The notes beneath the pieces are model-generated. The model did no database searches, was not told the origin of the DNA, and was given only the letters and a program-made list of their open reading frames with translations. Below are positions 1 to 16,504 of a stretch of 64,000 nt of DNA, piece after piece. The DNA is taken from NCBI GenBank assembly GCA_963823665.1, contig CAWGMQ010000004.1, forward strand, positions 1,728,001 through 1,792,000, in the 5' to 3' direction. The position numbers were made by a program, and so were the translations under genes. Origin of the DNA: an uncultured Planctomycetota bacterium. Its GTDB lineage: Bacteria; Planctomycetota; Planctomycetia; Isosphaerales; Isosphaeraceae. Each line of letters starts with the position of its first letter. Within the stretch, counting starts at the first letter, position 1.

Positions 1-1667
1 AATGCCGGCACTCGCGGCCCCAATTTCGTCAAGCAGCTCGCAGAGTTGGAGAAACGTGCCGGCGAAATTCCCGTCGCCATCGTGCGCACGACCGACTTCC
101 CGAAAACCGGAAAGGCGACGAATCAGATTGCCGTGATGCTCAAGCGGCACGGGCGAACGGTGGTCGTCGTCGACACCGACTGGCGAAGAATGCTCGCCTT
201 CGGGAGGTTTCGTGCGAGCCACGCGAGCAGGACCGACTTCGCCGCCTGGCAGAACACCGCCCGCCCGCTGGGTGAGCTTGACTCGCTCCGAAAGATTCTC
301 AATTTCAGCGCGCTAGCTGCAATGCCGGCACGCGCGGCCGCTTCTCAACCACCGGCCGCTCCGCCAGTGCGAGTTGTTCCCGTTTCGGCGACCTCGGAGG
401 ATTCGATCACTCCCAGCGCTCCGCGCGGGTCCGATCGTTCTCGGCCGCACGAACAGCGTGACGCCGTCCCCCGTCACCTTCGAGCCGAACGAGTTCGTCC
501 AGCACGCGGCATTCCTAGGTGGGTCGGGCAGCGGCAAGACGACGGCGGCGCTGAACCTGATCGAGCAATTGCTCGCGCGCGACGTTCCGGCCGTGCTGCT
601 CGATCGGAAGGGGGATCTGTGCCGGTACGCCGATCCAAAGGCTTGGGATCGTCCGCTTGGCGACGCGGCATGTACCGGCGCGCGTCAGGCATTACGGAAC
701 AGGCTCGACGTGGCACTCTTCACTCCGGGCGAGCCGGCAGGCAGGCCGCTTGCCCTGCCTATCGTGCCGCCCGGCTTCGCCGATCTTCCCGAAGCCGACC
801 GGGAGCGGTTTGCTCAGTACGCCGCAGGCGCGCTGGGCAGCATGATCGGTTTCAAGTCGTCCGACGCAGACAAGGGACAGCGGGCGATTCTGGCGAAGGC
901 CATCGAGACGATCGCGGCGGTGGCCGGCGCGGCGATCACGTTGCCGGTCTTGAGAGCTGCGATCGAGAATCAGGATGGAGCGCTCTTGAACGCCATCGGC
1001 GGCGGCTACCCTGGCAAGTATTACGCCAACCTCGCCCAGCGCTTGCTGACGCTCGAGCTGAATAACAAGCTACTGCTGAACGCCGATGAGGGGCTGGACG
1101 TGGACGCCCTTCTGGCGCGGGCCGTTACGCTCAGCCAGGCCGCGTGCGGCTGTCGGTGATCAGCACCCGATTCCTCGGCGATGCGGCCAAGGTCGACTTC
1201 TGGGTATCGCAACTGCTTGTGGCGGTCTCGCGCTGGTGCGCAAGTCACCTCAGGCGCGGCTCCAGGCGGTATTCATGTTCGACGAGGCAGACGTGTACCT
1301 GCCCGCGGGCACCAAGCAGCCTGCCACCAAGGCGCCAATGGAGGACTTGCTCAAGCGGGCTCGGTCGGCCGGCGTCGGCGTGTTCCTGGCGACGCAGAGT
1401 CCGGGCGATTTCGACTACAAGTGCAAGGAGAACGTGCGAACCTGGCTGATCGGGCGGGTGAAGGAGCAGCGGGCGATCGACAAGCTGAAGCCGATGCTGG
1501 CCGCGGCCAAGATAAACGTAGCCGACAAGCTCGCCGGGCAGGCGACAGGTGAGTTCTATCTCGTGCGCGAGTCCTGCGTGACGGCAGTGCGGTCCGACGA
1601 GTCATTCATGCGCACCGAGCAACTACCAGAGAACGAGATTGCTTTGCTTGCGCGCCGATTGGCTTGA
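1..1667 (+). CDS. HerA/FtsK-like (DUF87-type) P-loop ATPase, 5'-partial, three apparent frameshifts (~412, ~1120, ~1240)
   Basis: Walker A GGSGSGKT, LLDRKGD, Walker B MFDEAD and LATQSPGD are spread over ORFs 46-1065, 374-1159, 1144-1449 and 1086-1667; frame is open from base 1. Confidence 0.75.
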
Positions 1668-1739
1668 AATCCCGCAGGTACCGAGCGTCCAGCGGTCTTG
1701 GAGCACGCGGCCGCCGGGATGGCGGGGTGCCGAACAGGT

Positions 1740-2156
1740 CTACCGCCAGTTGATTATGGTGAGGGGATAGCCGAGCTGCTGGACTCGTTGGAAATGGGCG
1801 GTGTTGCCGGTGACCAGCTCCAGGCCGTGCTGGAGAGCAATAGCGGCGATCATGGGGTCGGCAACGCCGATCGGGCGGCCGGTGCGTTCAAGCTCCCCGG
1901 CGATACGGCCCGCCAGCTCGGCGGCGGAATGGTCGAAGGGGAGAATTTCCTCGAGGGCGACAGCGGCAAGGAAGGCTTGCAGGCGGCGGGCGGACTGGTT
2001 TTTCTGGAAGCCCCGGACAATCTCCATGACGGTGACGGAGGACAGGGTGAGGATGCCTTGGCTCTGACGGTAGGTGGTGGCGTTCTGGGTGACGGTCGGA
2101 TTTGACGCCTTGAGTACCTCCGAATAGATGTCGGTGTCGAGAAGGGCCTTACTCAA
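1740..2156 (-). CDS. vapC: PIN-domain toxin, VapC family
   Basis: LLDTD N-terminus, VMEI, DPMIAAIA, LVTGNTAHF motifs; TTG start at 2156 overlaps the antitoxin stop. Confidence 0.9.
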   Translation of the reverse strand: MSKALLDTDIYSEVLKASNPTVTQNATTYRQSQGILTLSSVTVMEIVRGFQKNQSARRLQAFLAAVALEEILPFDHSAAELAGRIAGELERTGRPIGVADPMIAAIALQHGLELVTGNTAHFQRVQQLGYPLTIINWR

Positions 2157-2403
2157 CGGAGATGTCCCGCCAGCCGTCTTCAAGGCGGTGCTTCATGGCA
2201 TCGGCAACAACCTCGTCGAGCTCATCGGCGGCGTCGGCCATGGCACCAATGGAACCCAGGCCCTTGTCAGCCGGGCGGGCAGGGGGCTGATGCAGGAAGT
2301 CCCGCACGGCCTGTGCGACCAGGGCGTCGGCCGAAGGAAAAAGGCCGCTATGCACCTGGGCACGGACGGCAAGTTCCAAATCATCTGGTAAGTTGATCGT
2401 CAT
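2149..2403 (-). CDS. Ribbon-helix-helix antitoxin (VapB-like)
   Basis: MTINLPDDLELAVRAQVHSGLFPSADALV RHH-like start; acidic C-terminus; overlaps the vapC start. Confidence 0.75.
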   Translation of the reverse strand: MTINLPDDLELAVRAQVHSGLFPSADALVAQAVRDFLHQPPARPADKGLGSIGAMADAADELDEVVADAMKHRLEDGWRDISVE

Positions 2404-2532
2404 ATTAGCTTGCCTCCGAGATGTCAGCTTAGCATAATCGAGCCGGTTTGCCAATGGGCGGATAGGCTGGTGTCAAACGACAAATCGCCGATTCGTCGCG
2501 TGGGACGATCGACGGCGGGGCTCAGTCGCTGT

Positions 2533-2745
2533 TTATTGGTCTGGAATGCCGGTTAAAGCATCCTCGAGGATTTGGGGGGCGATCTGCATGGGGCTTACCT
2601 TGCGTCCGCTGGTGCTGCTCTGCTCGGCCAGGCGGATAAGCCGTTGTCTGGTGGCGTCGCTCATGGGCACCTTGGGATGCCGTACCCAGTTTGCGTCGGT
2701 TGGCCTGCCTGGGCGGATACCTTGTCCAGGCTCAAGGCCGGCTTG
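2533..2745 (-). pseudogene. 5'-truncated remnant of a small DNA-binding/antitoxin-like protein
   Basis: Open frame ...PGRPTDANWVRHPKVPMSDATRQRLIRLAEQSSTSGRKVSPMQIAPQILEDAL*, not in the ORF track; family recalled, not verified. Confidence 0.4.
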
Positions 2746-2753
2746 AATGGTTC

Positions 2754-3080
2754 TTATCCGGCTGTTATTTCCATGTGCCCCTGCGTCCGGGCACTGGCCT
2801 TGGACAGCTTGATCTGCACGTCATAGCCCAAGCGGGTGATGAAGCGGATCAGCCTGTCGGTCGAAAATCCATCGAAGCGGCCTCTGAGCAATTCGGAAAC
2901 CTTGGGCTGGCGGATGCCGAGCAGTTTGGCAGCTTGGGCCTGGGTAAGACGCCGTCGCTGGACAATCCCCAGAATCTCAGCGGCAAGCTGGGATTTAGCC
3001 ATATATTCGTCGGCGTTTTCAATCCCTAGGTCGGCAAATACATTGCCGCTGCTGTCGTGGACGATGTTGTCAGCGGTCAT
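2754..3080 (-). CDS. XRE-family HTH antitoxin (HTH_37-like)
   Basis: SSGNVFADLG...LTQAQAAKLLGIRQPKVSELLRG...FSTDRL signature. Confidence 0.85.
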   Translation of the reverse strand: MTADNIVHDSSGNVFADLGIENADEYMAKSQLAAEILGIVQRRRLTQAQAAKLLGIRQPKVSELLRGRFDGFSTDRLIRFITRLGYDVQIKLSKASARTQGHMEITAG

Positions 3081-3151
3081 GGTTTTCTGGCCTTCTGCTG
3101 GTTCTTGTGATGCTCGACGGCTGCGCTCAGGCGTTTCTCGATCAAGTCGAG
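3077..3151 (-). pseudogene. C-terminal remnant of a Gp49/RelE-like toxin
   Basis: LDLIEKRLSAAVEHHKNQQKARKP* ends in an ATGA overlap with the XRE gene, typical of Gp49-XRE pairs; 5' part missing. Confidence 0.55.
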
Positions 3152-3417
3152 GCGGCTGTGGGATCACGTGGATCGAATCGCTTCGGGTGATTGCTTAGGC
3201 GTCGGGTATCGAGTGGAGAGGATCCGGAGGCCGAGCGGAATGGGCGGTTCCAAAGACAACCGTTGATATTCAGTATTTCCCCTTTTTCGTTGGTGAGCAC
3301 AATTGATTATAGAGTGTAGAAGTGCAAACATATTAATTGCAACATGTAATGGGGTACCACGCTCCGGTCCTAGGTGAGGGACGGGCTTATGTGGCGATCA
3401 CCGCTCGGCGGGGCCGA

Positions 3418-3467
3418 TAAAACGAAAATGGGGAAGCGTTGGCTGAAAGCCTAAGCTCCCCCATTTT
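3418..3467 (-). terminator. Intrinsic terminator of the putative sRNA
   Basis: AAAATGGGG...CCCCATTTT stem followed by UUUUCGUUUU on the minus strand. Confidence 0.6.
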
Positions 3468-3620
3468 AGTCCGCGTTCAACCAAAATGGCTGACGGCGGA
3501 AAAGAGTGGGTCTTGCGTGTGAGACAACGCAAAACACCTAAAGGTACGCCCCTGGGAAAAGGGCGGCCTTTTTCGTTTGGGATTTGGCGCAGTTGCAACT
3601 ACGGCTTAGTAATCCCTGAC
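3418..3620 (-). ncRNA. Putative ~200-nt structured small RNA (candidate antisense regulator)
   Basis: Five consecutive hairpins (3579-3616, 3547-3565, 3510-3535, 3471-3499, 3425-3467); the first four contain G-U pairs on the minus strand; promoter upstream, terminator downstream. Confidence 0.65.
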
Positions 3621-3626
3621 ACTCAA

Positions 3627-3655
3627 CGTATAGGTCACGTTTTCCACCTTGTCAA
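3627..3655 (-). promoter_or_regulatory. Sigma70-type promoter
   Basis: TTGACA-17 nt-TATACG on the minus strand, directly before the structured region. Confidence 0.65.
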
Positions 3656-3964
3656 ATCTCTCCCCAAAAAACTGTCGATGTAGTCTCATTCAATAACATA
3701 ACATCTTACCGAATAAGGTTTTATTAATAATCACCGCGGTCCTCCTCGTCTCGCTCTTTCACCCGGCGATTTCAAAATTATTAGGTACGCATAACGGCCA
3801 GAAGCACATTGTAGATACACCAGCTACTTGACATTTCGCTCGCATGAGCAAGAGAAATCGCAGTATCGCATGCAATGCGATTGCAAGGCCTGACGAGTGA
3901 GACCGAAGGGCCTGGCAGCGGCATAAAACGGGTTTACCATGAGTACGCCCCTGGGAACCAAGCC

Positions 3965-4321
3965 ATGTCAGAGGTTTCAGACCGCCCTCCGGGGCGAGAC
4001 GTTCGCCTTGCGCGCACCGTAGACCAGCCACCCGGGTTTGGCCGAAATCGCCCGGTGGGCGGCACCCTCATTAGCAAATTAATCAACTTCGTGTTGGCGA
4101 GTTGGACAATCACTTCCCACGGGCATCATTTGCCCCCGCCAGGTGGCGGGTCGGCATCGGTCGAACCCGAGGCCAGCCGAAAGGGAAGAAATACGATTAT
4201 CTGCCTAGGAATCATTCTGGCATTTCTTGCGGCTCTTTTGATAAGTGGCTCCTTACGGCTGGGTGTTACCGTAGAGGTCGGCAATCAGGGTAAGGCCGTG
4301 CCAGGTGTAAACGGAAAGTAA
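3965..4321 (+). CDS. Hypothetical protein with one C-terminal TM helix
   Basis: ATG 3965 after GGGAA; hydrophobic IICLGIILAFLAALLISG; stop 3 nt before the sigma ATG; start uncertain. Confidence 0.5.
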   Translation: MSEVSDRPPGRDVRLARTVDQPPGFGRNRPVGGTLISKLINFVLASWTITSHGHHLPPPGGGSASVEPEASRKGRNTIICLGIILAFLAALLISGSLRLGVTVEVGNQGKAVPGVNGK

Positions 4322-4324
4322 ACG

Positions 4325-5182
4325 ATGACTCTTCGTCGGCTTGATCGCCGTGACGTCGATTTCTCGACTCCTTTGCAGATTTATCTGCACGATATTAATG
4401 ACACGCCATTGCTGTCGGCGCAGGAGGAACGCGCGCTTGCCGAGCGCGTGGCGGTGGGTGATCCCATTGCCCGCGAACACATGGTTAGAGCCAACTTGCG
4501 CCTCGTCGTCAATATCGCACGCGGCTATCTGGGCAAAGGTTTGAACTTGGAGGACCTTATCGAAGAAGGGAATTTGGGGTTGATGCGTGCTGTCGAAGGG
4601 TTCGATGGCATGATGGGGACTCGATTCAGGACCTACGCGATTTACTGGATCAAGCAGTCAATTCGCCGGGCGGTGATGAACACGGGGAAGCCGATCCGCC
4701 TGCCGGCGTACATGGTCAGCCTCCTTTCCAAGTGGCGGCGAGCCACGGGGGTGCTCACCGATCGACTCGGCCGGGCTCCCACGCATGACGAGGTCGGGAA
4801 AGCCCTGCGACTCTCCAAGAAGAAAATGGGAATTGTGGCCAAGGCAATCCGTGTCAACAACCTCACGCCCCACTCGGAAATCCTGGATGAGGACGGTCCC
4901 GCGCTCGACCGCGTCTTGACCGACGATCGCAGCAACAAGGGCCCTGAATCGAAGATGATCGAGGCCGACGACCTCGACCGCATCTTCCTGCACTTGGATG
5001 CCCTCGAGAGTCGTGAAGCCGCGGTCATTCGCATGCGGTTCGGCTTGGACTCTTACGAGCCGATGACCCTGCGCGAGGTCGGCGAGAACTTGGGCCTGAC
5101 TCGTGAAAGAGCTCGGCAGTTGGAGAGCCAAGCGTTGCAAAAGCTCATGAGCGCGCTGGCCGAAACGGGCGGGCGCATCTGA
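4325..5182 (+). CDS. RNA polymerase sigma-70 factor, RpoD/RpoS-like, lacking region 1.1
   Basis: Region 1.2 LQIYLHDI, ANLRLVVNIA, DLIEEGNLGLMRAVEGFD, region 4 TLREVGENLGLTRERARQLE. Confidence 0.95.
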   Translation: MTLRRLDRRDVDFSTPLQIYLHDINDTPLLSAQEERALAERVAVGDPIAREHMVRANLRLVVNIARGYLGKGLNLEDLIEEGNLGLMRAVEGFDGMMGTRFRTYAIYWIKQSIRRAVMNTGKPIRLPAYMVSLLSKWRRATGVLTDRLGRAPTHDEVGKALRLSKKKMGIVAKAIRVNNLTPHSEILDEDGPALDRVLTDDRSNKGPESKMIEADDLDRIFLHLDALESREAAVIRMRFGLDSYEPMTLREVGENLGLTRERARQLESQALQKLMSALAETGGRI

Positions 5183-5301
5183 ACATAGTCCAATATAGGT
5201 TACTTAATGCCTAGATGGACAATCGGCTTGCCTCGATATTCAACGAAAAAGACAAGTAGACAGCGACAGCGAAACAGACCGTTACTGAGGCAGTTGACGC
5301 T

Positions 5302-5802
5302 ATGGCAGACGACGAGTTATCTGAGCTGGCTGATTCGATACGTGATTCCTACGCGCGGCGTAGAGCCAAACATGATCGCCGCCGCCGCATCGACCCTACA
5401 ACCTTTGATAGAGAGTACACTGCCGAAGAGATGGAATTCATGCGGGCGATGCAGGCTTATAAACAAAGCAGCGGGCGCATGTTCCCAACCTGGTCGGAGG
5501 TGTTGAAGGTCTTGCGGAGCCTGGGTTATGAAAAGGTAGATCGTAGAGATGCTGACGGTGAAAGCGTCGTAGAATTTGTGCAGGCGATGCAGGCTTATAA
5601 ACAAAGCAGCGGGCGCATGTTCCCAACTTGGTCGGAGGTGTTGGAAGTCTTGCAAAATCTTGGTTATCAGAGAGCAGGCGGAGAAGCGCATAAGGATACG
5701 CAGTCCGCACGTAGCGCGTTAACGACAGCTACGAGCGAACCACATGCTGCACCGCGCACTGTCAACCGGGGTAATGTGATCGCTGAAGCGATTGGTACCT
5801 GA
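5302..5802 (+). CDS. Planctomycete-type small protein with a tandemly duplicated [24 protein letters not shown] domain
   Basis: [14 protein letters not shown] motif plus two copies of the domain, 46 aa apart. Confidence 0.75.
5445..5643 (+). repeat. 61-bp direct repeat within the CDS
   Basis: 5445-5505 vs 5583-5643, one mismatch. Confidence 0.95.
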
Positions 5803-5878
5803 GCACGCAGGCTAGGCTTTTGCAGCGTCGTCACGCACCTTGAGCTTAACCAGTTCAGCTTGTTTAGCTGTGCCCTAA

Positions 5879-5912
5879 ATAATGGGTAATAATCCCCTTT
5901 ATGTAACGCCAA
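5879..5912 (+). other. dif-like tyrosine-recombinase site A (arm X - 6 bp - arm Y)
   Basis: ATGGGTAATAA TCCCCT TTATGTAACGC(CAA); the arms recur at 12231-12244 and 13991-14004. Confidence 0.7.
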
Positions 5913-6172
5913 TCCGGGGCAGGGGTCAAGCGGCGGTCTGGGTTCGGCGAACCTGAAACCGTAGATTTGTGCTCGAGATGTTGTAGATTGATTGTTCCAC
6001 GTCCAAGGAGGGGCAGCGACAATGGCGATGCGAGAAGATGTCTGTGCGTACCGCGGCGATTACAGGCAAGCCGAACAAGAGCACGTAATTCCCCAGAGGT
6101 TCGCACGGGTTTGAACGGACGTACGCCGTCCTGATGATCAGCCAAGTCAAATTGAAGAGGAGTGGAATCGAG

Positions 6173-6377
6173 ATGGCACGCAGCGTTTCGACGCATCTCA
6201 TGTTCGAGGGAGTTGCCGAGGAGGCGATGAAGTTTTATGTCTCGCTCTTTCGACGGTCAGAGATCGTCAAGGTTGAGCGATACGGACCTGGCGAGCATGG
6301 GGCGGAGGGATCCGTCAAGGTCGCGACCTTTACTCTCTGTGGGCGAGAGTTCATGTGCATCGACAGCCCGATCAAGC
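6173..6377 (+). pseudogene. VOC/PhnB-like gene copy 1, 3'-truncated
   Basis: Near-identical to the first 68 codons of 16004-16504; similarity stops at ATCAAGC (6377). Confidence 0.85.
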
Positions 6378-6409
6378 CTCTCATTTCGGGCCACGATGTG
6401 AGAGGGGTG

Positions 6410-7291
6410 TTAACTTGGAATGGATAGCGTCGAAACAAAAGCGAGCAGCTCGGCCCATGCGTGATCGAATTCGATGAACTCGGTCGTAGTCTTCCGAATC
6501 TGCGCATCGTAAGTCGACGACGCCTTCTGTCTCACCTTCTCATCAAAGGCCGACTTCGTCGCGACAATTTCCCGAGCGGCGGACTTCTGCAGAAGGAAAG
6601 ATGAAACCTTGCCGAGGTCAATCAACGCCGAGTGCTTGCGAACCATTGAGGCAATATCGAAAACGTCTTGAGGGCGTGAACGATTCCGGGGAATCTGCTG
6701 AAGGAGAGCCCGAAGCTTTTCCGCGAGAATATCCTCGAGGGTGCAGACCCGAAGTGGAATCGATTCAGGACCGAGCTGCTCATCCCCGGTTTCGCACAGC
6801 ACGTCATTCAGGCTGATTTCGACTTCGACCACTTCAGAGAGCGTCTTTCCGGCTGAAAGCCGCTCGTCGATGTTTTGGAAGTATCTGTCGCCGGGGAGCT
6901 GATAGCAGACCTTGAGGTTGTAGGTTGGCCTGGTCTTATCGACACCAGGCGGATTTCGACGAATGCTCTGACACCGAGCCTTGACCTGATATCGCCGTTC
7001 TTCTGTCTTCAACGCAGTATCCATAAGCCCCTTGATAACTTCTGCACTGTCTGGGAAATCCTCGACGGCGCTGAAATCGAGGTCGAGCGTGCTCCGCATG
7101 TTGCCGTGAATGAAGCGAAGGGCGTTTCCGCCCTTAAACGCGACGCGAGAAACGAACGCAGCCGATGAGGACATCGACACCAGAATCACGAACTGGACGA
7201 AGCGACGCCTCGCTTCCTCCGCGGTCGTGCCATGCAGCTTTCGCCAAGCATCGAGCTCGGCAATTGAGGTTGGATAGCTTCCTGCTTCCAA
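6410..7291 (-). CDS. abiEii: AbiEii/AbiGii nucleotidyltransferase toxin (type IV TA)
   Basis: FKGGNAL...RSTLDLDFS, AEKLRALL, RPQDVFD motifs. Confidence 0.9.
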   Translation of the reverse strand: MEAGSYPTSIAELDAWRKLHGTTAEEARRRFVQFVILVSMSSSAAFVSRVAFKGGNALRFIHGNMRSTLDLDFSAVEDFPDSAEVIKGLMDTALKTEERRYQVKARCQSIRRNPPGVDKTRPTYNLKVCYQLPGDRYFQNIDERLSAGKTLSEVVEVEISLNDVLCETGDEQLGPESIPLRVCTLEDILAEKLRALLQQIPRNRSRPQDVFDIASMVRKHSALIDLGKVSSFLLQKSAAREIVATKSAFDEKVRQKASSTYDAQIRKTTTEFIEFDHAWAELLAFVSTLSIPS

Positions 7292-7298
7292 GCGGCCT

Positions 7299-8198
7299 CT
7301 AATTCTCTTCCAAGATGGCCAAAACGGACTGCGGAACGTTTAGCGAAAGATTCCACTCCGCCGAGAACGTCGTCGCATACGGGTTACGTGCGACCAACTT
7401 TACCGACCCTCCGCGTTGCAGTCCATGCCGCCATTTGGCGAGCAGAGGATGAGTCTTCCCTAACTTTTCAAGGAGAAAGCCCACCCGCTGTCGGAGCACC
7501 TTGTGTCCATAATCGTCTGCGTAGGAGACGAGCTTGGCGACGTCGACGTTTTCGGCTGACCGCCACGCTTGAAGCACCTTCTCAATGCCGCCCGACTTTT
7601 CAGGCATCCGAATCGCGTCAAGTAACGTTCGTTCGACGTCGGTGACATAAATCGGAATGCCGAAACTGTAACCGACGATAACGCCGAAGCCAGGCTCCGA
7701 CGAAAGCTGTGTCCAGATTACCCGGACACCTCGCACCGTCAGGGGACGCTTCGCCGTGAGAAGCGAGCTCGCTTCAGACCAGTCTTCTGGTGTCGTGCCA
7801 AGCGGTAACCGGTCGGCGTTTTCTGCTCGTTCGCTCGCAATCGGGTAGACCTCTGTCGGAACGAGGTCTGTGATGCCGTGGTAAGCCATCGCGGTAAGGA
7901 AGCCGAAGACCGCCCAAGGATTTGCTTCCTGAATGATTTGCTCTTCGGAGACCTCAAGCAAATTCGCGTAGGCTACGTTCACCACATAAACGCCGGAAAC
8001 GCCTTCAACCGACACGACCTCTCCTCGTCGGACGAGCTCCTTGCGGATGGCCTGAGCCTTCTCTTCATCCGGCAGAGGGGAGTTTTCAGCTCTGGCTATC
8101 TGGCGAGCAATTACAAGAATTCGCCAGTCGGAAATGACTCGACGTCGAGTCTCTGCAAGCACTCGGAGGATGTTGGACGCAAATGTCTTAGGGCCCAT
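7299..8198 (-). CDS. abiEi: AbiEi-family antitoxin/transcriptional regulator
   Basis: TAMAYHGITD, VTDVERTLLD, RQRVGFLLE, WNLSLN motifs; directly upstream of abiEii. Confidence 0.85.
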   Translation of the reverse strand: MGPKTFASNILRVLAETRRRVISDWRILVIARQIARAENSPLPDEEKAQAIRKELVRRGEVVSVEGVSGVYVVNVAYANLLEVSEEQIIQEANPWAVFGFLTAMAYHGITDLVPTEVYPIASERAENADRLPLGTTPEDWSEASSLLTAKRPLTVRGVRVIWTQLSSEPGFGVIVGYSFGIPIYVTDVERTLLDAIRMPEKSGGIEKVLQAWRSAENVDVAKLVSYADDYGHKVLRQRVGFLLEKLGKTHPLLAKWRHGLQRGGSVKLVARNPYATTFSAEWNLSLNVPQSVLAILEEN

Positions 8199-8210
8199 AG
8201 AAAGAGTCGA

Positions 8211-8266
8211 GCATCGCGAGTAAGATGTCCTGAGGACATCTTACTCGCGATGCAACTCAAAGTCAA
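8211..8266 (-). promoter_or_regulatory. abiE promoter with a perfect 43-bp palindromic operator
   Basis: TTGACT-17-TAAGAT (8266-8238); GCATCGCGAGTAAGATGTCCT-G-AGGACATCTTACTCGCGATGC (8211-8253) overlaps the -10. Confidence 0.85.
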
Positions 8267-8462
8267 GGATAAAATGAAAATCTTGTCAAGATTAGGAATG
8301 GTTGTAATGATCGCCGAAACCGAAGAAGACCTGGAGCATTTCGCCGCGATGGGCGAATGCGAATTCAGTAATGGCGAGTGGGCTCGGCTGGATGCCAAGA
8401 GGCGGCCCGTGACGGCGATTAATCAGGGCTGCCAGGTCGCATCAGTCAATGCATAATCATTG

Positions 8463-8954
8463 CTAGAGTTGCGGTGGCTGCGTCTCGATCATGAGGTGTT
8501 CCACGGGCCACGTCATACCGTCACGGGGGCCAGCCATGCGGACAAGGCCCACCGTTACTTTCCCCGCACCTTTTTCGCCTTCCCATTGCGAAAAACTTTG
8601 GATCTGGCGACTGATGCCGTCGCCGACAGCCTGCTGGACCAGCCGTAGCAAGGCACTTTTCCAGTTCTCGCCAGATAGGCTCTCACCTGTCGTAAGCACC
8701 TCGCTGCTCGGTTTGCGGATCGTCATCGTGAAAATGGCAGAGTCCTCCGTTAATCGAAGCCTAAGGGATCGGGCGATCTTGTCCGCGGAATCGAGTTTCA
8801 GTCCGCGATCGCCGTCAAGAAATCGTTGCACAATGGTGTGGCTCAGCTCGGCGTCCTTAGCGACCTTATAAGCCGTAAGCCCCCGCTGGCGAATAACTTC
8901 ACGAAGCTGCTCCGAAATTGTCAGAGCGGGGGTAGAGGTCTTTTCGGAAATCAT
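8463..8954 (-). CDS. XRE-like HTH protein
   Basis: ISEQLREVIRQRGLTAYKVAKDAELSHTIVQRFLDGDRGLKLDSADKI. Confidence 0.75.
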   Translation of the reverse strand: MISEKTSTPALTISEQLREVIRQRGLTAYKVAKDAELSHTIVQRFLDGDRGLKLDSADKIARSLRLRLTEDSAIFTMTIRKPSSEVLTTGESLSGENWKSALLRLVQQAVGDGISRQIQSFSQWEGEKGAGKVTVGLVRMAGPRDGMTWPVEHLMIETQPPQL

Positions 8955-8997
8955 AAATACCTCAATTTGTCGTGATTCTCGCCATTACCACACAGTT

Positions 8998-9025
8998 ATT
9001 ATACGCCAATTGTTCTACGAGTCAA
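8998..9025 (-). promoter_or_regulatory. Sigma70 promoter of the HTH gene
   Basis: TTGACT-16 nt-TATAAT. Confidence 0.65.
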
Positions 9026-9090
9026 ATGGCACATGTGACAATTGACGCCGCTTTCGCGGGCAATCCAGGATAACGGGTGAAATGCAGAGG

Positions 9091-9159
9091 CTTGTATCCG
9101 GAGTGCCGCAGAAAGTGGCTCGCCTTCACGAAGGGCGGTGTCGGCGCTTCGGATACAAG
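9091..9159 (+). repeat. Terminal fold-back hairpin of the IS91-like element
   Basis: CTTGTATCCGGAGTGCCG (9091-9108) pairs with CGGCGCTTCGGATACAAG (9142-9159) with two G-T wobbles; inner hairpin CGCCTT..AAGGGCG. Confidence 0.9.
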
Positions 9160-9185
9160 GGATTGGACTGAACCGCGGGCAGGCG

Positions 9186-9207
9186 GGCGACTATGGAGAT
9201 TCAATCG
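9186..9207 (-). other. oriIS-like rolling-circle origin motif
   Basis: CGATTGAATCTCCATAG downstream of tnp resembles the recalled IS91/ISCR oriIS (TTGAACTTCCTATA). Confidence 0.45.
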
Positions 9208-9432
9208 CGGGCTTTCCAGCAGGTGAGCGCGTTGTCGGCCGGGAGCGGTGATTCGATCGCTGGAAAGCCGGTTGGTGTGCCGTAGCCGGTGCTCGATTTA
9301 GGCCCAACCTGGGCTTTCTTCAGGCCTATGGACACGAAATCCTGCTCGCCGAACAGGGAATCCACGGTCACCCTCGAAGGGCGGTGTTGACGATGGCGAG
9401 TCATCAGGTTGCTCCCGTCCATCTGGAAGGGT

Positions 9433-10668
9433 TTAGGAAGTATCAAATGCCACCGCCTCGGGTGTGGGACCGCAGTGAGGTCCTTCACTCGGGTCGGCCG
9501 GAAGCTCCCCGAGAATCGCGACGATGAACATATAGCCCTTGCCGCAAGCAGGGCAGACGTGCATCGCGTGTTCTCCTTCGGCAGCGACCTGCTCTTCTGG
9601 AGCCGGCTCAGGCGCCCCCGGTTCCAAGGAGGGCTCGGTCTCCTCGAGTAGCTCGCGACACAGTTCGAGATTCTCCCGGCACACCCGGTTAGCGAGGAAG
9701 CCATAATGCCGGATTCGGACGAATCCGGCGGGTAACACATGCAGGAGGAATCGGCGGATGAATTCGATCGCTTTGAGCGCCATCGTCTTCTGCTTTCCCT
9801 CGTGCGCGTAATCCTTCCAGTGGAACGTAACCTTGCCGTCCTCAACCGTGATCAGCCGGTGATTGCTGATCGCGACCCGGTGGGAGTACCGGGCCAGGTA
9901 TTTCAGCACCTGTTCCGGGCCACCAAAGGGAGGCTTGGCGTAGACAACCCATTCGGTCTTGGCACTGGCAGTGAGCCGGCGCTGAAACTCGGCCGGGTCG
10001 GCCAACGAAGCGAGCGTGCCGTGCAAGGAAAGCTTGCCCTGATCGAAGGCGAACTTAAGCAGAGCGAGAAACTTCCCCCGAAAGAGGCGGCTGAGGACAC
10101 GGACCGGTAGAAAGAAGCCGGGTTTGCAAGGGACCCATCGCGCGCGATCAGGCGACAGCCCGCCACCCGGCACAACGCAGTGGACGTGCGGGTGATGTTG
10201 CAGGTTCTGGCCCCAAGTGTGGAGGACGGCCAAGAAGCCGATCTCAGCCCCGAGGTGCTTCGGGTCGGCGGCGATCTGCTGCAAGGTCTCGGCGGCGCAT
10301 TTGAACAGGAGACCGTAGACCACCCGCTGATTCTGCAAGGCAATCGGGTCGAGCGCCGCCGGAAGCGTAAATACGACGTGATGATATTCGACCGGCAGCA
10401 ATTCCGCTTGCCGGGCCTCCATCCACTCCGCGGCGGCGGTTGCCTGGCACTTCGGACAGTGCCGATTGCGGCATGAGTTGTAGGCGATCTGCTGATGGCC
10501 GCATTGATCACATTCCTCGATGTGTCCGCCTAGGGCAGCAGTCCGACAAGCTGCGATGTCGCGCAGAGCGCGACGCTGCTCGGACGAGAGCGTGTCGCCA
10601 TATCGGTCGAGAAAAGCATCACCATAGTCGCGAACGACCTCGGCCACTTCGAGCCGAGGTCGGTTCAT
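9433..10668 (-). CDS. IS91-family transposase (Zn-binding + Y2 HUH domain)
   Basis: YNSCRNRHCPKC, HVVFTLP, LHTWG...HPHVHC (HUH), YLARY (Y2), RIRHYG. Confidence 0.95.
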   Translation of the reverse strand: MNRPRLEVAEVVRDYGDAFLDRYGDTLSSEQRRALRDIAACRTAALGGHIEECDQCGHQQIAYNSCRNRHCPKCQATAAAEWMEARQAELLPVEYHHVVFTLPAALDPIALQNQRVVYGLLFKCAAETLQQIAADPKHLGAEIGFLAVLHTWGQNLQHHPHVHCVVPGGGLSPDRARWVPCKPGFFLPVRVLSRLFRGKFLALLKFAFDQGKLSLHGTLASLADPAEFQRRLTASAKTEWVVYAKPPFGGPEQVLKYLARYSHRVAISNHRLITVEDGKVTFHWKDYAHEGKQKTMALKAIEFIRRFLLHVLPAGFVRIRHYGFLANRVCRENLELCRELLEETEPSLEPGAPEPAPEEQVAAEGEHAMHVCPACGKGYMFIVAILGELPADPSEGPHCGPTPEAVAFDTS

Positions 10669-11496
10669 GGCCGGGACTCACCGGGTAGGGGACCGATCCG
10701 GTCGAGGGGGCTGCGCGTTGCCTCGACAACGCCTGGCGACACGTGGGTATAAATGGCGGTTGTCTCGAGCTTGCGATGGCCGAGAAGCACCTGAATTGTC
10801 CGGAGGTTGGTGCCGGATTCGAGCAAATGGGTCGCGAAACTATGCCGCAGAGTATGCACCGTAACGTGCTTGCCCAAGCCGGCGTGTTGCGCGGCGCGGA
10901 CGCAGATTTTGTGCACGGCTTTTCCGGTGATGGGTTTGTCTGGGACGTCCCCGGGGAAAAGCCAGTCGGTCGGCCGAACGATTTTCCAGTATTCACGGAG
11001 CAGCGCGAGGAGACGAGGCGAGAGCATGACGTAGCGGTCCCGACGTCCTTTGGCTTGTCGGATGCGGATGACCATGCGCTTGCTGTCGAGGTCATCAACT
11101 CGAAGGCCGATGACCTCAGAGAGCCGTAAACCCGCGGTGCTTGATGTCGATCAGCCCTGCGAAGAACGTGGCGACTTCGTCTGAGCTGAGAACGACAGGG
11201 AGGCGCTTGGGTTGCTTTGGGAAGGGAATGCGATCCAGGGCATCCTTTCGACCGAGGGTGACCTCGTAAAGGAACCGCAACGCGGCGAGGGTCTGGTTGT
11301 AGACGCTCCAGGAGACCTTCTTCTCTTGAATGAGGTGGAGCAGGTAAGATCGAACCCCCTTTCTGCCGAGGTGCTCGGGCGACCGCCTGTAATGTCCTGC
11401 GAAGAATCTGACACGCGAAACGTAGGCGTTGATGGTCCGTGTTGAGAGATTCTTGAGCTTCATGTCCTCGATCATTTGGCGTCGTAGCGGTGTCAT
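10665..11496 (-). pseudogene. Tyrosine recombinase (N-terminal SAM-like domain) broken by a short internal deletion at ~11135
   Basis: N-half MTPLRRQMIEDMKL...KHR joins out of frame to AGLRLSEVIGL...KGRRDR...HTLRHSFATH...LLGH...TAIYTH; the usual short linker is missing. Confidence 0.85.
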
Positions 11497-11646
11497 GATG
11501 TGCTCCCGTGTTGAGGTAAAAAGGGGAAGCGTTTATCATGGCTAGGTAGAAGCGCTGAGCGTGTGCGTGTGTCACGCAACCGGGCGCCTGTGACGCGGCA
11601 AGCCGGGCTTGTGTGTTAAAGAATCAAGGACGCGGCGGACAGGCGA

Positions 11647-12086
11647 TGGGCAGCGAAGCGATCGTCCAAAACTTGATCGGTGTCTTCCCTCGAAGGATAG
11701 TGGAGGGTCCAGTAACCCCACATGATTGCCCTGAGTGTCTGGAGTTGCGCGGGCAACTCACCGGGACCACTTGGCCTGATGTCCCGCTGGAGTTCATTCG
11801 CGACCATCCTGACGTATTACCGCTGCTGTCGCCGGAAGCCTATCTGACCTTCCTACCCGCGTGGCTACACCAACGTGTCCTCGAGCCTGAGGGCGAAGTG
11901 GCTTCCATGCTCCTCGTGAACCTCGCATGTGATTCCGATCCGACAGGGTTTGCATTCGAGCAACGCGACGCCATCATCGAAGTGGCCCGATTCATCGTGC
12001 GGAACAACGGCTGGGGGCCGGAAGACCCTGAAAACGCGAAGTCCCTCGTCGCGATCGAACGGGCATGGGCGGACGTCATAGCCTAA
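11647..12086 (+). CDS. Hypothetical passenger protein (DUF6714-like)
   Basis: HDCPEC...WPDVP...LLSPEAYLTFLPAWL; lies between the recombinase and the right end of the element. Confidence 0.6.
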
Positions 12087-16003: not shown

Positions 16004-16504
16004 ATGGCACGCAGCGTTTCGACGCATCTCATGTTCGAGGGAGTTGCCGAAGAGGCGATGAATTTTTATGTCTCGCTGTTTCGAGGGTCAGAGATCATCA
16101 AGGTTGAGCGATATGGAGCTGGCGAGCATGGGGCGAAGGGGACCCTCAGGGTAGCGACCTTTACGCTCTGTGGGCGAGAGTTCATGTGCATCGACAGCCC
16201 GATCAAGCATGAGTTTACGTTTACGCCATCGATATCTATCTTTGTCGAATGCGAGAGCGACGCGGAAATCGAAGACGTGTTCGGCCGGCTTTCGGCCGGT
16301 GGGCAAGTATTGATGCCGCTTGACAATTACTGGTTCAGCACAAAATTCGGCTGGGTGAAGGATCGGTTTGGGCCATCGTGGCAGCTTAACCTTGCGGTGG
16401 TTCACCAGGCCGCCGCTCGAGAAACGCCCCACCAGGCCGCGACCAAGCCGATGAAAAGCAGGCCCGCGAAGGTCGCAACCGCGACTGACAAGACGGCGTT
16501 CTGA
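16004..16504 (+). CDS. VOC/PhnB (3-demethylubiquinone-9 3-methyltransferase-like) family protein, copy 3
   Basis: THLMFEG.AEEAMNFY, FTPSIS, LMPLDNY, FGWVKDRFG.SWQL; C-terminal read-through overlaps the convergent gene. Confidence 0.88.
   Translation: MARSVSTHLMFEGVAEEAMNFYVSLFRGSEIIKVERYGAGEHGAKGTLRVATFTLCGREFMCIDSPIKHEFTFTPSISIFVECESDAEIEDVFGRLSAGGQVLMPLDNYWFSTKFGWVKDRFGPSWQLNLAVVHQAAARETPHQAATKPMKSRPAKVATATDKTAF

Follow-up and report, generated by a model that had tools for sequence, protein, structure and literature searches.

The window, by which we mean the whole 64,000-nucleotide stretch of DNA that was analysed, belongs to a genome of 16.5 Mb, and its first 16 kb has the look of a mobile or defence island, carrying HerA-like, PIN, HTH, AbiE, IS91-like transposase and integrase domains. 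The G+C content is 51–56% over most of 3–9 kb, as compared with 62% for the window, and no tRNA gene was found in the window or in the 40 kb to its left. The locus studied here comprises, on the minus strand, a putative small RNA (sRNA) with five hairpins (3415–3620, about 205 nt) and its promoter (3627–3655). On the plus strand there follow an AT-rich region (3690–3860) with three weak candidate operon promoters (−35 elements at 3693, 3758 and 3828), all of them upstream of 3897; a leader containing a 27-codon upstream open reading frame (3939–4022); a 118-codon ORF with a membrane segment (3965–4321); a gene for a sigma-70 family factor with regions 1.2, 2, 3 and 4 (4325–5182), beginning 3 nt after the ORF stop; and an extra copy of a gene for a small conserved planctomycete protein (5302–5802), for which we coin the label DPTT from its motif.

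Duplicated genes occur elsewhere in the island. A PIN-type toxin–antitoxin pair preceded by an HTH gene (1740–3167) is found again about 4 kb to the left of the window (L124, 14471–15703), the two HTH copies being close to each other. A 3-demethylubiquinone methyltransferase-like gene is present in two near-identical copies, one truncated (6134–6427) and one at 16050–16504, which flank the AbiE and integrase block.

The divergent promoter and the putative folded RNA

The leftward promoter described in a first-pass annotation of this DNA consists of TTGACA (3655–3650), a 17-nt spacer ending in AAACGTGACC, and TATACG (3632–3627); its coordinates and strand proved correct on re-checking. The site ranked second among 383,790 combinations of site, spacer and strand in the window. 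It has no T at −7, and a generic promoter scan missed it. It is a close match to the conserved promoter of the chromosomal sigma orthologue. All 31 orthologue loci considered (L008, L075 and L095–L123; 29 fetched and two others, which are kin and not independent, with promoter sites selected by regular expression) carry TTGAC, 16–17 nt, TAnnnT and an extended GT(C/T)C element. At each of the 31, the conserved promoter (TTGACA, 16–17 nt ending in GT(C/T)C, TAGGTT) stands about 140 nt 5′ of the sigma orthologue, and it offers a usable handle on planctomycete transcription. Two positions of the sRNA promoter deviate from the consensus of the orthologues, −15 and the −7 T, the latter being present in 31/31 of the regex-selected sites. 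Its spacer scored well against random 10-mers (p = 0.004), yet outscored only two of 27 leave-one-out sites.

An 18-base pattern was then built from the sRNA promoter and the promoter of the parent sigma gene. In genome G000 it matched exactly only at these two sites, which is circular because the pattern was drawn from both. With two mismatches it was found in G000 upstream of two further genes, one of them the chromosomal DPTT gene (control, 0), and in five other genomes, for which the pattern had been fixed beforehand, the sole exact match was the promoter of the sigma orthologue of G133. These matches indicate that the sRNA promoter is probably real and akin to that of the sigma gene, a likeness that suggests feedback; that the promoter is read by this sigma itself is a guess. 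A relaxed pattern was not enriched in the genome (32 matches versus 81 in the control) and was found before unrelated genes, so the promoter may be of a housekeeping type. On the same grounds a genome-wide regulon derived from the relaxed pattern was rejected; counts for the whole genome come from pattern searches throughout.

Downstream of the promoter come five hairpins, as had been proposed, with loops at 3594–3597, 3554–3558 (UUCCC), 3519–3526 (UGUCUCAC), 3484–3486 and 3445–3447. The minus strand of 3410–3625 folded with −86.6 kcal/mol (z −5.93, equalled in 0/200 shuffles) and the plus strand with −83.4 kcal/mol (z −3.80), most of the folding signal lying within 3420–3539. The earlier argument that G–U pairs favour the minus strand failed, as the minimum-free-energy structures carry five such pairs on either strand. 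G–U counts were consequently dropped as strand evidence, and the choice of strand rests on the promoter and the energy. The proposed U-tailed terminator was borne out in part: a last hairpin with a U-run is present (3416–3470), with U/A runs on either side that would possibly make it a bidirectional terminator, but the scan called hairpin 3 with its U-run terminator-like and not the last hairpin. The RNA, whose ends are inferred, may therefore be about 120 nt long, ending after hairpin 3, or about 205 nt; both forms retain both of the seed segments considered below. An Rfam search of 1–12000 gave nothing at gathering score and four weak matches, none to c4 and none at the sRNA hairpins. The sequence that follows the sRNA promoter has no similarity to the region upstream of the parent sigma gene.

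Repeats shared by the RNA and the leader

Seed 1 (3544–3558, minus strand) is formed by the UUCCC loop and the 3′ arm of hairpin 2. It is the complement of a 15-mer in the leader (3943–3957) that covers codons 2–7 of the upstream ORF and, as first reported, the GGGAA just 5′ of ATG 3965. Seed 2 (3519–3526, minus strand) is the 8-nt loop of hairpin 3, of which 7 nt are complementary to the leader at 3897–3903. The 15-mer direct repeat is exact, with copies 399 bp apart, and we could confirm that both repeats fall on sRNA hairpin loops in an order compatible with antiparallel pairing. The upstream ORF, which the first-pass annotation did not contain, has its ATG at 3939, with the 15-mer beginning four bases further on. 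A weak hairpin carries this AUG in its loop and draws its 3′ arm from the 15-mer. GTACGC, the hexamer that opens the 15-mer, was seen a third time, in the inter-promoter region (3785–3790).

A direct repeat of at least 15 nt arose in two of 3000 dinucleotide shuffles of 3300–4330, and a repeat of at least 14 nt was present in three of 62 window tiles. The 7-mer matches the loop sequence and has a compatible order but is statistically weak, since a 7-mer of any sequence shared upstream of the two 15-mer copies has p = 0.22; when the match was restricted to the loop sequence, p was 0.010, 0.020 and 0.070 when 60, 135 and 661 nt of leader, respectively, were allowed. The 15-mer with at most one mismatch has three matches in the genome, two of which are this pair, and no other lies near an RNA-like locus. 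The repeat stops exactly at the loop edge and its flanks are unrelated. Hairpin 2 needs bases on either side of the repeat, and 33 of 5000 random flanks folded equally well (p = 0.0066); that the hairpin is built with flanking bases argues against a plain target-site duplication.

Once both RNAs are opened, pairing of the 15-mer has a net energy of about −10 kcal/mol and that of the 7-mer one of −7 to −8 kcal/mol, and the repeat was the best site for the seed within 3860–4340. The UUCCC loop is wholly unpaired in the sRNA fold; the stem ties up 10 of the 15 seed bases and costs 13 kcal/mol to open. Loop contacts of 5–7 bases gave −4 to −6 kcal/mol net, and the 10-mer intermediate about 0. The leader itself is structurally unremarkable (z −0.39). 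The leader hairpin described at 3886–3913 appeared in local and short folds but was gone in longer ones; given this instability, the 7-mer contact may be of a kind other than loop–loop. Of the kissing-loop antisense repression originally put forward, pairing with the leader stands as the best reading, with favourable net energies, whereas its loop–loop form needs a leader hairpin that is supported only in part. A G–U-rich extension between the patches was also considered and dropped as evidence, as it was no better than in shuffles (p 0.44–0.80).

The membrane-protein ORF and the duplicated sigma gene

The 118-aa ORF has a single homologue, P0002, which is likewise 118 aa long. No family was found for it in Pfam or NCBIfam, PHROGs gave one row at E 0.58, and protein searches with the ORF returned only P0002 and a variant, P0003; the Atlas gave no usable match. 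Frameshift-aware alignment of P0002 with the window DNA required some seven changes of frame within 3971–4156, with use of all three frames, and then ran in a single frame to the stop. The changes fall within the first 64 codons (3965–4156), with 0/7 in the last 165 nt (p = 0.012), and the ORF was open and in frame from ATG 3965 in 6% of simulations. It follows that only the C-terminal membrane segment looks protein-coding (4196–4321, including the C-terminus); 26 consecutive residues in this part are identical to P0002. The cluster member P0003 has compensated shifts too, although cluster membership selects for such shifts and errors in the reads could also account for them. Among contigs from DNA runs, a short one is identical to 4034–4184 and may stem from the source sample; contigs of two DNA runs included none over the sRNA.

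The ORF has one membrane segment (hydropathy 2.6). The original description of 3965–4321 as a transmembrane protein would hold for this C-terminal segment but probably not for the first 64 codons, which are indifferent to frame. Because of this indifference, translation may begin at ATT 4196 and give a 41-aa peptide; the product is otherwise 118 aa long. By a simple duplex score the best ribosome site of the ORF lies before ATT 4196 (−5.5 versus −4.2 for ATG 3965). This internal site (4181–4188) paired in the local fold with a possible anti-Shine–Dalgarno sequence at 4113–4118 (p about 0.78), whereas in longer folds its partners were different ones. Blocking of 4105–4125 did not make it easier to open; in these models the ribosome site of the 41-residue peptide is possibly sequestered. 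The 15-mer lies over the site of ATG 3965 and about 240 nt upstream of ATT 4196. The last six residues of the ORF are identical in P0002, and their codons contain the ribosome site of the sigma gene, a hint that a coupled gene follows P0002 as well.

The sigma copy is 92% identical to the chromosomal copy, with DNA homology extending from start codon to stop. It is a duplicate of a host sigma and not the RpoS-like factor first suggested, falling below the NCBIfam cut-off of TIGR02394 (244.8 versus 378.7 bits). Orthologues are present in 93 of 121 family genomes, seven of which have two matches, and in a tree the window sigma groups with its parent and the same-genus orthologue (100/99). As judged from its divergence from the parent (dS 0.415, dN/dS 0.108), the copy evolves under purifying selection. 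It carries four changes at columns with a conservation of at least 95%, as compared with none in the parent and 0–7 in 29 other orthologues. These changes at near-invariant columns, K55R, S102R, S106I and V263A, lie in what we take to be sigma regions 2 and 4, so that promoter melting or specificity may differ.

The DPTT-motif protein is present in 118 of 121 family genomes, and the Atlas clusters closest to it are mostly from Planctomycetota, in keeping with a planctomycete genome; its domain gave no family or fold match (best Z 3.7). In the window gene the domain is partly duplicated, with a 29-nt exact repeat. An extra sigma gene adjoins a DPTT gene in five of six other two-copy genomes (G022, G133, G134, G144 and G094; not G006). 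Such extra sigma and DPTT copies (L129–L133, L165; window 4325–5802) occur in either order and in several genera, and an in-frame TGA is present in the sigma matches of G022, G133 and G134. The RNA module was absent from all seven upstream regions read of other extra sigma cassettes.

Homologous DNA of the locus was found in none of the collections searched. A DNA search of 61 relatives gave three short matches, none of them true (best E 0.0019), and one of 121 family genomes gave no true match, the best sRNA matches lying in apparent coding sequence. Two-patch patterns produced one single match in viral contigs, four in family genomes (control, four) and 30 in metagenomes, none of the last homologous, while a promoter-plus-seed pattern matched two genome contigs, both from unrelated taxa. 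No true match was found with peptide patterns in metagenome, genome and viral collections or with a peptide profile in 401 phylum genomes; the peptide query gave one weak match, inside a long frame, in 121 family genomes. Plasmid and phage collections held no true homologue, and a single-sequence covariance model run on 120 other genomes gave one match at E 0.02 and no true homologue. On the evidence of these sequence searches, the locus is a well-formed single-locus candidate.

A candidate antisense switch and its alternatives

What is seen in the sequence is a promoter, a folded RNA, two complementary patches and an order of genes. Our preferred reading, to which we give roughly an even chance, is that a tisB/IstR-1-like, divergent antisense sRNA with a C-rich loop seed would block translation of the leader and so gate a peptide and a coupled sigma copy on a mobile island. 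The UUCCC loop and the 8-nt loop would make the first contact with the leader, at GGGAA and at 3897–3903. A 15-bp duplex would then extend over the GGGAA 5′ of ATG 3965, together with the opening codons of the 3939 ORF, and stop ribosome loading. Leader translation would count for its passage and not for its sequence, in the manner of mok, by opening downstream structure; it would yield the membrane peptide in its 118-aa or 41-aa form, and ribosomes would be passed on to the sigma gene 3 nt past the stop. Since the sRNA promoter resembles that of the host sigma gene, whatever activates the host sigma, possibly the sigma itself, would also make the sRNA and damp the island copy. The module would most likely have started as a type I toxin–antitoxin-like unit, the sigma and DPTT copies being captured behind it. 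If the locus is what it seems, RNA control of the antitoxin style would reach a further phylum and be seen to gate a global regulator.

A fuller version of this proposal is tentative, and we regard it as doubtful: a type I toxin–antitoxin-like RNA switch may have been recruited to control a copy of the host sigma that was captured and has changed slightly, with transcription of the sRNA from the host-sigma type of promoter providing negative feedback and a sequence-indifferent leader ORF coupling a membrane peptide to sigma synthesis. If this were true, the island could turn on dormancy and a reprogrammed regulon together.

The sRNA might be real but act elsewhere, or have lost its function, the repeats being a relic of local duplication or due to chance. 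The repeats of at least 14 nt in three of 62 window tiles, the p of 0.22 for the 7-mer alone and a leader that is not significantly structured are consistent with this. We nevertheless consider it rather unlikely, given a 15-mer that is perfect amid unrelated flanks, two matches that both coincide with loop edges, and three genome matches with at most one mismatch, of which two are this pair and no other is near an RNA-like locus. It is unlikely, too, that the repeats act as DNA, either as operators for a protein or as a target duplication or recombination pair flanking a 399-bp promoter segment. Hairpin 2 spans the repeat boundary (a joined allele would fold with −5.4 kcal/mol, as compared with −14.9), the left copy lies 70–85 nt downstream of the promoter and within the folded RNA, and no terminal inverted repeat was present at the segment ends among the 25 longest of 53 pairs listed; against this, the repeats are in direct orientation, an integrase and transposases are nearby, and the third GTACGC, at 3785, lies between the copies.

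The 15-mer supplies the 3′ arm of the hairpin that holds AUG 3939, which raises the question of the sign of regulation. An sRNA pairing with the leader could activate it, or affect transcription, by freeing the 5′ arm before AUG 3939 or by altering termination, and a shared promoter logic would fit a feed-forward loop too. The duplex would, however, start 4 nt downstream of the A in AUG 3939 and extend over the GGGAA 5′ of ATG 3965, presumably within both ribosome footprints, and we think either mode improbable. Least probable is the absence of any discrete sRNA, a bidirectional terminator and a decayed sigma-promoter copy having been carried along and inverted in the duplication. The concentration of the folding signal in 3420–3539 and the promoter without a −7 T would suit this explanation, but five hairpins follow the promoter with no gap, and the post-promoter sequence is unlike that upstream of the parent sigma gene.

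Repression of the leader by an antisense RNA, the reading we prefer, has parallels. In R1 CopA/tap, an antisense RNA blocks a leader ORF required by the next gene. In the c4-icd-ant system of P1 and P7, two-patch antisense control acts on a small gene coupled to a transcriptional regulator, the c4 RNA being cut from the same transcript. The locus resembles the c4 system in its proposed two-patch control and in a small gene that would be coupled to a regulator, but has no Rfam match to c4.

Divergent type I toxin–antitoxin pairs (tisB/IstR-1, zorO/OrzO, shoB/OhsC and dinQ/AgrB) combine an sRNA gene with a short perfect match to the long leader of a small hydrophobic protein (available text of PMC4147584), and 15 continuous base pairs suffice for OrzO (excerpt of PMC3919570). 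Here, at the level of sequence (promoter, fold and terminator-like hairpin), a putative sRNA gene is likewise divergent from a peptide gene, and the 15 nt of exact continuous complementarity fall within the 15–21 nt of the class, by the thresholds in those portions of PMC4147584 and PMC3919570. The hydrophobic peptides of the class have fewer than 60 aa; the one here would have 41 if ATT 4196 is used, and otherwise 118. The locus differs in its two patches, in a seed made of hairpin loop and arm, in a match that overlaps a ribosome site, that of ATG 3965 (about 240 nt upstream of ATT 4196), which the match of those antitoxins does not in the account available from PMC4147584, and in a sigma factor 3 nt after the peptide stop. 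There is no sequence homology with the class, and Pfam, NCBIfam and Rfam searches over the locus gave none to any described toxin or antitoxin family. Like pAD1 par (Fst/RNA II), whose repeats serve pairing and translational block (PMC4147584, in part), the locus has two dispersed direct repeats, the 7-mer here being statistically weak; unlike par, whose RNAs converge and share a terminator (same extract of PMC4147584), it has diverging promoters and a peptide without any Pfam match. In hok/mok/Sok the antisense RNA blocks a leader ORF whose translation the next gene needs (PMC4147584, same portion), and the block proposed here may act likewise. The leader here is open but frame-indifferent, both in the window and in P0002, and is in frame with the peptide, unlike those of hok/mok/Sok and CopA/tap. 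In these two systems the antisense RNA is encoded across from its target and overlaps it, whereas the sRNA here would pair with a repeat at a distance of 399 bp. The locus belongs to none of these systems by homology or gene geometry. According to a 2025 paper (PMC12390103), type I systems had, until its cyanobacterial case, been described in Proteobacteria, Firmicutes and Tenericutes alone. Among the papers listed from an open-licence library, none dealt with an antisense system in planctomycetes or with a type I module that shares its transcript with a sigma factor.

UCCC loops seed binding to Shine–Dalgarno sequences, after which the stem opens, in LhrC, RNAIII and RsaE (excerpt of PMC4132741). 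The locus shares with these RNAs a UCCC loop and a G-rich ribosome site (PMC4132741, same excerpt), but they are trans regulators of many targets in Firmicutes, whereas the target here is perfect and neighbouring. The other ribosome sites of the operon, at 4183–4187 and 4312–4317, read GGGAA and GGAAAG and not GGAG, and the UUCCC loop could touch them weakly.
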